DNA of 62,919 nucleotides, filler included, from Globobulimina sp. (lineage: Eukaryota): assembly GCA_003354225.1 (NCBI GenBank). It is 30 parts of 30 records of this genome, joined end to end, with 100 filler letters (N's around TTAATTAATTAA, not from the genome) between each part and the next. Parts side by side here need not be neighbours in the genome. Positions count along the whole stretch, not along the records: positions 16,816 to 18,816 come from PIVH01009848.1; 29 more parts are not named here. One strand, given 5' to 3'. Each line of letters starts with the position of its first letter. Positions within the stretch are counted from its first letter, which is position 1. The notes under the pieces are model-generated. The model did not search any database and was not told the origin of the DNA. It saw only the letters and a list, made by a program, of their open reading frames with translations. A program made the position numbers and the translations under genes. Positions 16,716 through 47,416 of this stretch are shown piece after piece.

Positions 16716-16876
16716 NNNNNNNNNNNNNNNNNNNNNNNNNNNNNNNNNNNNNNNNNNNNTTAATTAATTAANNNNNNNNNNNNNNNNNNNNNNNNNNNNN
16801 NNNNNNNNNNNNNNNGGATTGAAACGGTAAAATTGGTCTGATTGCAATTAATTCCATTTCCAAAAATTAATGATAT

Positions 16877-17094
16877 TGGTTCGGGTAGGATTTAAACCTA
16901 CATCCATGCGAATTGAATGTATAGCATTGGTTTATAATAAGTTATTGCTAACAAACACTCTCTCTTCATCGTTAATCTCTAAACCGCTTCGAGCGGTTTG
17001 TGAATTTGGTTAGTAACCGCCATATAAATGAAGGCGAGCCTCAAGGATACGACCGAAGTCGCAGACGCATTCTCTATCATTGAGATACCGAACC
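16877..17094 (-). tRNA. tRNA-like gene with a 146-nt structured insert in the anticodon loop; identity ambiguous
   Basis: Acceptor GGTTCGG/CCGAACC + A73; D arm TCTC-AATGATA-GAGA; anticodon stem TGCG(T)/(T)CGCA; T arm GTAGG-TTTAAAT-CCTAC; T5 run about 10 nt downstream. Confidence 0.7.
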
Positions 17095-17271
17095 ATTTGT
17101 TATTGTTCTTGTTTAATCTCCATAACCAAAACATATATTTAGTACATTCAAGTATTGCTACATTTGATTAATGGGACAAGAGACAGTAATATTAAGTGCA
17201 GCACTCTGAAATTAAATGTATTTGTATTTTCTTTTTTCACAAAAATCACAACAGTGTGGACCGACTGTGTT

Positions 17272-18816
17272 ATGTCTCTTTCTTATGGTGTTGAAGAGTT
17301 TCTTTCTTTGTCATCACACGCAGTGATTAGCGGCCTGCAAAACAGACCGGAACTAAATGGAGGATTAGGAACTATCCTGAAATTTGTTAAAGAAAAAGAA
17401 CGATATCACATTCAAGCAACATTTGGAGTGGAAAAATACAATCTTTTATTAAAGAAAAACAATTTAATTTTTGTGAGCAATATTCATGAACTTATCCATG
17501 CACAAAATGTGGCATTCTCTACATTGCCATGGTTATTAAAAGGAATTGGTGCAAAAAAGGAGAAGCTTGATGACGATGCAAAATATGACGAAATTCAAAT
17601 AGAAGAATTAAATAAATCAGATATTGTTCTAATTCATGGTTTAATAAACAAACCGGAATTTAACAATTTATTTGCAGAAATTGTATATTTTAACAATCGA
17701 TCCAAGCGATACCATATCAAATTTGAATATAAAAGCAAAGTGGAACATAAATCGATGAAATCAAGCAATTTACAGTTAATATTTCCCTTTAAATATCGTG
17801 AATATACAGCAACAAAATGTGTGACCTGTTCAACACCAATATCATCTCCACAACAATTGCTTACATGTCCTGGCTGTGCGTCATTGAATTACTGCAGTCC
17901 ACAGTGTAGAAATAAACATTTATTTGCTGAGAAACATCTCGGTCAACCATGTTATATCTATCGATGTAATATGTTATACAATGTATCCAAGTATAAATAT
18001 ATTTTATATCAACAATTTACACCATCTGATATGCGGCAATTTAAAACAAAAGAGATTGCTGACTATAAAAATTTTTGTCATGTATGTACTATGTACAGTT
18101 CATAGTTGTCATAATGCATACATTTTTTTTTCATTTTTCTGAAATTTGAAGGGTAAAAACAGAAAAAATACGAGTATTAAAACAAATATTCGTAATTGGG
18201 AAGATTGGATGAAACATTTTGGATTTGATTATGAAATTTGTAACAATCATTCTCATCCAATGTCTGTGTATCATATTTTAAAACAATATTTTTTAAAATA
18301 TACAAAATTTGACAAAAAAACCATTAATATTAATTTAGTGGGATGCTCTGATGCAGAATTTGCTGGAATTGAATTTTCCGAACCAATGATTGCTGACATT
18401 GCTGATTGGAAATGGCGATGGAAAATGATGGCTCATTTATTAGAACCATTAAAAATAAATATTACATGTTATGGAGATGAGTTAAACGAACATTGTGCAA
18501 ATTTTAAAAGTCGAAATTTGGCAATGTCTTTTAAGAGAGGGCTGTATTTACCAAACAGAACAAAACTTGAAAATGAGGTTGATATTGTAATTGGTTTAAA
18601 TGCAGGAATTCATGAACACAAAAATGGATGGGTGCCTGTGATAAAATATTGTGTTCAAAATAAAATAGCAATGATGTTTACAGAATATTGTATGGTTGAG
18701 TATGAATTATATATTCGACATTTATTGGGAGGATTAGTGGTGCAAAATAACTTAATTGTTGCATTTAATCAATTTAGAGATCCAACCTTAGCTTTAACTC
18801 CATTTACACGACGCAT
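17272..18816 (+). CDS. MYND zinc finger protein (MSS51/ZMYND15-like C-terminus); intron 18082-18151
   Basis: CVTC...CPGCASLNYCSPQCRNKH..H..C; ININLVGCSDAE, GLNAGI; two N-terminal I.GL.N.PE.N repeats. Confidence 0.8.
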
Positions 18817-21017: not shown

Positions 21018-21463
21018 CAATATCAGATATTGTCATAAAAGGAGGTGAAATTAATCCAATAGTTGACACCTTTATTTACATTGCCATAGATTATCCACAG
21101 CAAGAATTCACTCCTAAGGAGGAGAAGGGAATTCCCGAAATGGAAATTATTCCTATAGCTGATGTACAACCCAGCTTTCCGGGTGGTGAGGAGGCAAGAA
21201 TTAAGTACTTTGGAAATAATGTAAAGTATCCTCCAGTTGCAAGAAGTGTCGGAATACAGGGGGTAGTATATGTTACCTTTGTTGTTGAGAAGGATGGTTC
21301 TGTTACTGATGTCAAAATATTAAAGGGTATTGGTGGCGGATGTGATGAAGAAGCTATCCGTCTTATTGAAAATATGCCAAGATGGAATCCCGGCATACAA
21401 GATAGTAAAACAGTGAGGGTACAATTTAATATGCCTATTAAGTTTACGCTTAGGACATTTTAG
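21018..21463 (+). CDS. tonB: Bacterial energy transducer TonB, C-terminal domain (Bacteroidota-like)
   Basis: PSFPGG...VKYPPVA...IQGVVYVTFVVEKDGSV..VKILKGIGGGCDEEAIRLIENMPRWNPG. Confidence 0.9.
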
Positions 21464-24084: not shown

Positions 24085-25119
24085 TCATAATACTGATTGT
24101 TGCATATTTGCATCTTCATCATCGTCATCTTCGTCATCTTCGTCATCCTCAAACTGGTCATCATCGACGTTGGCATCTTGATATTGTTGATACTCCGATA
24201 CTAAGTCATTCATATTTGACTCCGCTTCGGTAAATTCCATTTCGTCCATTCCTTCGCCAGTATACCAATGCAAAAATGCCTTCCGTCGAAACATAGCCGC
24301 AAACTGTTCGCCAACTCTTCGAAATATGTCTTGAATGGAAGTAGTATTCCCAACAAAAGTAGCACTCATTTGTAACCCTTTCGGAGGTATATCACAAACG
24401 GATGATTTAATATTATTTGGTATCCATTCCACAAAATATGCCGCATTCTTATTCGATACATTCAACATTTGCTCGTCGATTTCTTTCGTACTCATTCTTC
24501 CGCGAAACATGGCAGCCGCAGTTAAGTAGCGGCCATGACGCGGGTCACTGGCACACATCATATTTTTTGAGGAAAACATTTGTTGCACCAACTCTGAGAC
24601 TGACAATTGACGGTAATCTTGCGCGCCATGCGAGGTTAACGGAGCAAAGCCACACATAAAGAAACTGTTTTTGTAATACAATGTGTATACATTTGTATGT
24701 AATTTGCAAATTAAGCCAAACATACAAAAAACACCAAACTGTAATCTTGGAAACGGTACTAAGTTAACTGCTAATTTGCGCAAATCGGCGTTTAACTGAC
24801 CAGGGAATCGTAAACAGCACGTAATGCCACTCATAGTCGCAGAGACTAAATGGTTCAAATCACCATAAGTTGGTGTGCTTAATTTTAAAGTTCGAAAGCA
24901 AATATCATACAAAGCCTCATTGTCAATCACCATCACTTCATCCACATTCTCCACCAATTGGTGCACAGAAAGGGTGGCGTTGTATGGCTCGACCACTGTA
25001 TCAGATACTTTTGGCGATGGAAACACCGAAAAAGTGCACATCATTCGATCCGGATATTCTTCGCGAATCTTACTGATCAATAAAGTGCCCATACCAGAGC
25101 CTGTACCGCCGCCCAACGA
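24085..25119 (-). CDS. TUBB: Beta-tubulin, 5' truncated; intron 24665-24739
   Basis: [57 protein letters not shown]; splicing restores FPRLHFFM. Confidence 0.98.
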
Positions 25120-46223: not shown

Positions 46224-46715
46224 ATCCGGTCTCCGTGCCAACAACAGCAATTTCGCCGGCAACAACAAAATCGGTGGTCCAAACTCCCGGGTCATAACTG
46301 GCGATGTGGATGGGATTGGCGGGATCACTAATGTCCAGCACCCAAACACCGTCACCCGCAATACCCATGTAGGCCAGGTCGCCCGAAAGGCTCACGGTGC
46401 CAATGGACTCAGGCGGATTGAAGCGTCCCAGGAGTGACATGTTTGCTGGATCGCTGATATCGATAACAAAGAGACCTTGATTGTAACAAGCCACGTAAGC
46501 CTGGTCGCCAGCAACCTTGACAATATGAGCCGTTGGCCCGGTGATAAGAGAATCTAGGACAACCGGGCTCATGGGATCACTGACGTTAACCGACATCAGA
46601 CAGTTCGCAGAGCATACGTAGACATGGTCCCCCGCCAGGGAAAGGTGTTCCGCATACCTCATTGGCTCTTGAGTTGCCAGAGTTGGGTTTGTGGGATCAC
46701 TGACATCAAAAACAA
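46224..46715 (-). CDS. Prokaryotic LVIVD-repeat protein fragment
   Basis: Repeated GD.AYV.....GL.V.DISDPANP units; GC-rich, no introns. Confidence 0.85.
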
Positions 46716-46719
46716 GCAT

Positions 46720-47416
46720 ATTTCCATTTGCAGCCATCCTTTCAGGTAAAAACAAATTGGATGTGACCGAAGTCAAACCATCGCAGCCCCGCGGCAATGC
46801 GCCGCCCGCCATCTCCATCATTGAGACGGACATCAAAGTGGATTTTAAGGAGCCGCGCGATTACAAGGAATGGGAAAAGAAAAATAGAGGCAAAAATTTC
46901 AACGCGAAGAGCGAAACGAAAGCAAATGAGGAGAATGAGGTGGAGGAGGAGGAGGATTTTGGAGCCATCGATCCATTGCAAGTTGCACAAAATAGCAAGA
47001 AAAAGTATTTCGAGTCGCTTGAGCAGAGCGGCTTTAATGCGCAGAAATTACGCAAACAGAAATCTGCGCTGAGCTCACCGCCATCGGCTGCGGCTTCGCC
47101 GAATAAGAATAGCAACGATTTTGGTGTAATTAACCCATACTCGACTCGCGGATTGCCATTGGGCAAAAGCAAAGGGAGCGTGTCGCCAAATGACAAGAGT
47201 GGAATGTGCGAGTATCATAAGCCGAAATTTATAAATGGCAACATGGCGATGGGCAAGTTATTGAAACAAAAGTCTGTGAGGAAGGAAGAGGAGATTGTTG
47301 GTACTATGCGCTATATTTACGAGGTTGATGAACATGGCAATAGGGATTTAGTGCGGAGGTTGCCGGTAAGGAAAATAAATCCAAATGCGAAAAGTAGTGC
47401 ACATTCATTAAAATGA
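46720..47416 (+). CDS. UFD1: UFD1-family protein, C-terminal half
   Basis: LDVTEVKP...AISIIETDIKVDFKEPRDYKE matches the end of the UFD1 UT3 domain. Confidence 0.75.

Follow-up and report, generated by a model that had tools for sequence, protein, structure and literature searches.

The element described here, which lies on the minus strand at 17094-16877 of a 62,919-nt window (the whole stretch of Globobulimina sp. DNA that was analysed), is truly of tRNA origin and is arranged like an RNA polymerase III (Pol III) gene. Checked pair by pair, it forms a complete cloverleaf that is interrupted after position 37 by an insert of 146 nt, and it belongs to a family of several non-identical copies. 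Most likely, it is neither a decoding tRNA nor spliced. The explanation that we place first, and to which we accord about an even chance of being correct, is a tRNA-derived dispersed family, arranged like Pol III genes, whose product would be an unspliced RNA with the shape of a tRNA. Since the family is repeated and the splicing signals are missing, a tRNA-derived repeat or a tRNA-like RNA is likelier than a working tRNA gene. The parts of the element and its immediate surroundings are the following.

16816-18816: piece of the window that holds the element, which ends 61 nt from the left edge of this piece
17095-17101, minus strand: last 7 nt before G1, where the likeness to other copies approximately ends
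17059-17094, minus strand: 5′ tRNA-like half, with the acceptor 5′ strand, U8 and A9, the D arm, A26, the anticodon-stem 5′ strand and loop
17094-17088 with 16884-16878, minus strand: acceptor stem, seven Watson-Crick pairs
17085-17071, minus strand: D arm, within the 5′ half
17085-17082 with 17074-17071, minus strand: D stem, four pairs
17069-17065 (5′) and 16911-16907 (3′), minus strand: anticodon-stem strands, flanking the loop that bears the insert
17069-17066 with 16910-16907, minus strand: anticodon stem, four pairs plus a U31-U39 mismatch
17064-17059, minus strand: 5′ part of the anticodon loop, C32 U33 G34 C35 G36 A37
16913-17058, minus strand: insert of 146 nt, after position 37
17063-17048, minus strand: hairpin H1, a perfect 6-bp hairpin with a C(UUCG)G cap, partly exonic
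17042-17031, minus strand: hairpin H2
17018-17008, minus strand: hairpin H3
16999-16981, minus strand: hairpin H4, 8 bp, from the inverted-repeat search
16950-16946 with 16926-16922, minus strand: hairpin H5
16877-16912, minus strand: 3′ tRNA-like half, with U38, the anticodon-stem 3′ strand, the variable loop, the T arm, the acceptor 3′ strand and A73
16906-16902, minus strand: variable loop
16901-16885, minus strand: T arm, whose loop has U54 U55 U56 A57 A58
16901-16897 with 16889-16885, minus strand: T stem, five pairs, with a 7-nt loop
16884-16878, minus strand: acceptor 3′ strand, followed by the discriminator A73 at 16877
16866-16862, minus strand: T5 run, 11 nt past A73, resembling a Pol III terminator and presumably acting as one
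16816-16861, minus strand: downstream flank, alike (with indels) in a 920-nt contig of run X2 and cut by the piece edge

The stems have the lengths (7, 4, 5 and 5 bp) and the spacers of an intron-bearing tRNA gene, the anticodon stem consisting of four pairs and the U-U. The perfect acceptor, D and T stems of the original prediction and its T5 run were thus recovered on the minus strand, and its tRNA shape stands once the U31-U39 mismatch, which it had not mentioned, is added. An inverted-repeat search indicates a possible eighth acceptor pair, -1:73. U8, A14, A15/U48, G18, U54, U55 and A58 are in place, which agrees with the U8-A14, A15-U48, G18-U55 and U54-A58 pairs claimed at first. The nucleotides that we take, by reference to yeast tRNA-Phe, to form the 9-23-12 and 13-22-46 triples are also present (A9, U12-A23, C13-G22 and G46). 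In the canonical tRNA consensus, the D loop contains G18 G19 and the T loop U54 U55 C56. The element has neither G19 nor C56: as had been noticed from the outset, it carries A19 and U56 instead, and the two can still pair with each other. The 3-70 pair is U-A, in keeping with the predicted absence of G3-U70.

The tRNA shape is genuine and not a product of chance. A scan of the window for split cloverleaves by their stems alone returned this site and no other, and when the window was shuffled 300 times under a first-order Markov model, 16 of the shuffles contained the same pattern, so that the stems alone would be met in about one window in 20 and are not compelling. Looser pairing, with G-U allowed everywhere, gave 20 entries in the window versus 4-18 in 30 shuffles, which is approximately the chance level. 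The real site is separated from chance hits by ARAGORN, because the conserved nucleotides are present: at default settings, the in-silico spliced form was called as a tRNA-Arg(GCG), whereas none of 45 spliced chance split cloverleaves, obtained from 860 shuffles, was called. The search with long introns allowed, which had been recommended, gave a divided answer, with nothing called in the window at the default threshold and this site as the sole call at 95% of it; the calls in the window rose to 7, 31 and 137 at 90%, 85% and 80% of it. An alternative offered by ARAGORN, which places a 148-nt intron at 31/32 of a Leu(CAA), was rejected: it removes nucleotide 26, has a U at 37 and is without the long variable arm.

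The window consists of 30 pieces of about 2.0 kb each, joined by spacers of N44 + TTAATTAATTAA + N44; sequences on the two sides of a spacer are therefore not truly adjacent, and features near a piece edge are cut. Its G+C content is about 30%. The piece that carries the element (16816-18816) is eukaryotic. The element is adjoined there by a plus-strand gene (17253-18816) encoding MYND and MSS51_C domains, whose 70-nt GT..AG intron (18082-18151) is crossed by joined contigs of runs X2 and X6, and other pieces of the window encode Ras, tubulin, BTB, MATH, UCH and MT-A70 domains. The best database proteins for a β-tubulin fragment (24088-25119, minus strand) are only 75-87% identical to it, an unusual divergence for a β-tubulin, and one that may point to a eukaryotic lineage that has been little sampled; a BTB+TLDc protein encoded in the window has its best relatives at 52-61% identity. 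ORFs with TonB_C and LVIVD repeats are found at 21020-21460 (plus strand) and 46225-46860 (minus strand), in two pieces of higher G+C which look bacterial, so that the assembly probably mixes bacterial DNA with that of the eukaryote.

That the element belongs to a family was established from contigs of four public sequencing runs matched to the 2-kb piece. Sixty contigs of run X1 and 54 of run X2 matched this piece, the likeness classes (99% or more, 95-99%, 90-95% and below 90%) containing 15, 23, 18 and 4 contigs for X1, and 11, 18, 19 and 6 for X2. The original prediction had named many decayed copies as the sign of a tRNA-derived SINE, and this sign is at least partly present: in both runs, the element is covered by many short non-identical contigs, 85-99% alike, which among the pieces listed are 61-111 nt long with 0-7 differences each. 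The unique 1.7 kb of the piece is covered by few long contigs. The summed depth over 16883-17083, which is not to be read as a copy number, is 56-157 in X1 versus 8.6 beside the element, and 271-331 in X2 versus 57 beside it. Blanks in cover (X6 and X8 over the element, X2 at 17151-17284) were not counted as evidence.

The differences between the copies are not confined to substitutions. Loose ends and indels occur inside the element at 16910, 16918, 16933, 16970-16978 and 17049: other copies have an ATA insertion at 16933, in the H5 loop, and in their linkers beyond H4 they have gained 1 nt and lost 4 nt at 16970-16972, and gained 4 nt at 16978. At 17049, copies of X1 and X2 run on into a different sequence which, as judged by eye, again forms a self-complementary hairpin at the place of H2, with an extra C-G pair and a G-U replaced by G-C, both strands being altered with respect to this copy. 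By eye also, the indels of the variant copies sit in predicted loops or linkers. Among the loose ends shown, those of two X1 contigs part from the present copy at 17101, 7 nt ahead of G1. Past the 3′ end, the 920-nt X2 contig remains alike through the T5 run to the piece edge, and therefore at least one other copy shares sequence past T5. No second copy was found in the other 29 pieces of the window, either by pattern search with up to 3 mismatches or by sensitive blastn. One X2 contig ends at 17082-17086 and continues into letters that resemble a sequencing adapter, an indication that short fragments with ends some 9-13 nt inside the element are numerous.

Outside these runs, a viral contig collection contained no match to three element patterns, and a prokaryote genome contig collection none to the 5′ half of the element. 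Two metagenome contigs (L001 and L002) share only a 21-mer with the element and have no cloverleaf around it, and in a bacterial MAG a 23-mer of the T arm and acceptor strand lies within an EPSP-synthase-like coding stretch (L003, 6937-6959); both were set aside as chance matches. In the literature searched, none of five sequence strings from the element is printed in the main texts, and searches at the keyword level returned no matching long tRNA intron, interrupted-tRNA SINE or multi-copy tRNA-like RNA.

In the model that we put forward, the stretch would be one copy of a tRNA-derived unit belonging to a family dispersed in the nuclear genome of an AT-rich eukaryote. The unit would be laid out as a Pol III tRNA gene, with the copies becoming alike a few bases ahead of G1 and the discriminator followed by a T5 run, and would encode a full class-I tRNA body whose anticodon loop is broken after position 37 by a hairpin-rich segment of about 146 nt, variable between copies and apparently not removable by the known rules of tRNA splicing. 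Transcription from internal A- and B-box-like sequences would yield an unspliced, non-decoding tRNA-shaped RNA of about 220-235 nt, and the unit would have multiplied in the genome in the manner of tRNA pseudogenes or SINE-type repeats. As regards transcription, one X2 contig joins 18081 to 18152 across the GT..AG intron of the neighbouring gene, and run X2 therefore contains RNA-derived sequence. Some X2 contigs on the element run unbroken from the T arm into the insert; on one side of the junction, each of them covers fewer than 31 letters. They give a hint that the element is transcribed, DNA in the run being another possible source.

Several observations count against a simple repeat. The insert is flanked on both sides by tRNA halves, and the acceptor stem is without a mismatch; in known tRNA-derived SINEs, the tRNA-related part is contiguous at the 5′ end. 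The 3′ flank, of which the piece contains 61 nt, shows neither a target-site duplication nor a tail, whether A-rich or of simple repeats, and with the T5 run placed directly after the tRNA-like 3′ end, Pol III would stop before any tail. Furthermore, the retention of all the stems and tertiary-pair nucleotides in this copy, together with that of the H2 hairpin in the variants, suggests selection on the fold rather than free decay. In this same flank (16816-16868, minus strand), the T5 run is overlapped by an Sm-site-like AAUUUUUGG (16868-16860), past which lies an imperfect hairpin. A weak Rfam match to SL2 (17.8 bits, E 4.9) in this downstream region, which is alike in another copy, is probably due to chance in AT-rich DNA. 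Upstream, 9 nt at 17143-17151, 49-57 nt before G1, could pair without a mismatch with the final 9 nt of the insert (16913-16921); by our estimate, chance alone would give about one pair of this kind in such an AT-rich stretch.

In a second reading, which we consider unlikely, the copies would constitute a functional family of unspliced "tRNA-scaffold" RNAs, in which a complete L-shaped tRNA body bears a variable multi-hairpin domain in place of the anticodon loop. The role of this body would be to attract binding proteins or the enzymes that process tRNAs, and to lend stability to the hairpin domain. The nucleotides speak for it, since the stems and tertiary pairs are all kept, A19-U56 still pairs where G19-C56 is replaced, and H1 has its C(UUCG)G cap. 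Forcing the cloverleaf, moreover, costs only 1.7 kcal/mol (-58.6 versus a free minimum of -60.3 kcal/mol). The whole 218 nt is stabler than its shuffles (z -3.28, with 0 of 200 as stable); against this reading, the 146-nt insert alone is no stabler than shuffles (z -1.35), 18 of 200 of which fold equally well or better. All five of the hairpins first proposed for the insert are present, but with no stability beyond that of shuffled sequence. Variants of X1 and X2 bear a different self-complementary hairpin at the H2 place and confine their indels to linkers and loops, as seen by eye; against this reading, the copies differ by up to about 15%. Contigs of the element occur in a run that also has spliced mRNA contigs; nevertheless, no relative was found outside the runs in the metagenome, viral and prokaryote collections, and no Rfam family supports this reading. 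Indeed, Rfam, which had been suggested as a check on the insert, gave it no match: in the window there were none at gathering scores, and the five obtained at E up to 10 (E 0.9-8) were neither tRNA nor tRNA-like. C/D-box, H/ACA and hammerhead motifs were found in the insert neither by eye nor by Rfam at E up to 10. The existence of a new class of Pol III ncRNA, consisting of multi-gene, unspliced "natural tRNA-scaffold" RNAs with tRNA-like processing and a copy-specific hairpin domain, is doubtful.

A third reading, quite improbable in our judgement, takes the element as a genuine nuclear tRNA-Arg(GCG) gene whose exceptionally long 37/38 intron is removed by the tRNA splicing endonuclease. The insert does lie exactly at the canonical 37/38 place, C32, U33 and A37 are in order, the spliced form passes ARAGORN at default as a tRNA-Arg, the layout with its T5 run is gene-like, and tRNA genes are normally multi-copy. 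The signals for removal are another matter. As had been foreseen, the proximal anticodon-intron pair is absent, C32 facing a C at intron position -3, and only one of four positions can pair between 32-35 and intron -6 to -3. The archaeal-type bulge-helix-bulge has a 4-bp helix and two 3-nt bulges that hold the cut sites; of 197 loose candidates for such a motif, none was cut at the borders of the insert (36/182). The 3-nt bulge that a fly-type rule places at the 3′ cut site was not found either, and the 5′ cut site is buried in the perfect 6-bp hairpin H1, which is built partly from exon nucleotides 33-37, so that the anticodon lies inside it and is sequestered. U56, A19 and the U31-U39 mismatch, as well as the lack of an ARAGORN call at default with introns allowed, also tell against a working gene. 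No contig in the four runs joins 17059 to 16912 and thereby skips the 146 nt, which counts for little, since assemblies rarely include mature tRNAs. In Drosophila, according to PMC6614914, C32 pairs with a G at the third-last intron base in 16 of 16 intron-bearing tRNAs, the 3′ cut site lies in a 3-nt bulge, and breaking the proximal pair blocks splicing.

In favour of a spliced intron, the fly tRNA-Tyr genes listed in PMC4536317 have introns of about 20 to 113 nt within one family, the 113-nt one being structured and forming a stable circle; a removed intron of the present element might likewise be a stable or circular RNA, as is fly tric31905. As to the anticodon, eukaryotes spare G34 for Arg and avoid GCG in favour of ACG, according to PMC5372738; tRNA-Arg(GCG) genes are absent from human, yeasts and fly and occur where the tRNA gene set is inflated, as in the cow. 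GCG falls outside the anticodon set that is normal for eukaryotes. A reader of CGY codons may still be needed, for these account for 75 of the 248 Arg codons in 20 ORFs. The exceptionally long structured intron, one of the two options of the original prediction, is weakened by the missing proximal pair and bulge-helix-bulge, the unseen 17059-16912 joint and the usual sparing of GCG in eukaryotes (PMC5372738); the other option, an unspliced tRNA mimic, survives.

There is only a slight probability that the element is a MITE-like palindromic DNA element, its inverted repeats and internal palindromes mimicking a cloverleaf. MITEs are defined by terminal inverted repeats of at least 10 bp and by target-site duplications. 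The element has terminal inverted repeats of 7-8 bp and several internal perfect palindromes, and it is multi-copy, but the terminal repeat is 8 bp at most, the ends are otherwise dissimilar, no flanking direct repeat was seen, and the spacing and conserved nucleotides satisfy ARAGORN, unlike 45 of 45 chance cloverleaves. Finally, a chance resemblance in AT-rich DNA is very unlikely, for in spite of the shuffled windows that contain the stems, the chance hits fail in ARAGORN where the real site passes, and the boundary of the repeat unit falls at the tRNA-like 5′ end.

The tRNA-derived dispersed family remains the explanation that we prefer. If it is a simple tRNA-derived repeat, it is an unusual one, in which a whole tRNA with a large anticodon-loop insert has been multiplied, and it would illustrate how interrupted tRNA genes can turn into repeats. 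Should the RNA be stable and selected, nature would have its own equivalent of the engineered "tRNA scaffold", and the RNA would be a new kind of tRNA-shaped ncRNA. If it is spliced after all, its intron would be among the longest nuclear tRNA introns, and one that lacks the base pair which splicing is believed to require.

Among known systems, tRNA-derived SINEs and amplified tRNA pseudogenes resemble the element in their tRNA origin, their A- and B-box-like internal sequences, their many non-identical copies and a repeat 5′ boundary at the tRNA start. Unlike such SINEs, the element has its tRNA part split around the body with no contiguous 5′ head, an intact acceptor stem, a T5 run right after the tRNA-like 3′ end and, in the 61 nt available, neither a visible tail nor a target-site duplication. 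Small Pol III RNAs with a tRNA-type internal promoter, such as vault RNAs, may be compared with it for the paired 5′ and 3′ ends, the A- and B-box-like elements, the variable middle and the T-run terminator; they lack a complete cloverleaf, whereas the element keeps one and has no Rfam match. A tmRNA also combines a tRNA-like body with a large extra domain. It is however bacterial or organellar, with G3-U70, a tag reading frame and no D-arm cloverleaf of the present kind, whereas position 3-70 of the element is U-A; the tmRNA-like layout suggested at first finds no support, because the host is a eukaryote and neither ARAGORN nor Rfam detects a tmRNA in the window. U56, A19 and the anticodon GCG set the element apart from a normal cytosolic tRNA, and the "forbidden" anticodon recalls inflated tRNA gene sets (PMC5372738). 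A close structural likeness concerns the fly tRNA-Tyr gene CR31905 with its 113-nt intron (tric31905; PMC4536317, PMC6614914): both are interrupted exactly after position 37 by a long hairpin-rich segment that partly pairs with the anticodon, and both belong to multi-copy families with variable inserts and a T run after the gene. They differ in that the element lacks both the C32:G(-3) pair and the 3-nt bulge of the 3′ cut site, its 5′ cut site lies in a perfect hairpin, and its insert of 146 nt exceeds a fly intron already termed "unusually large" in its own paper.
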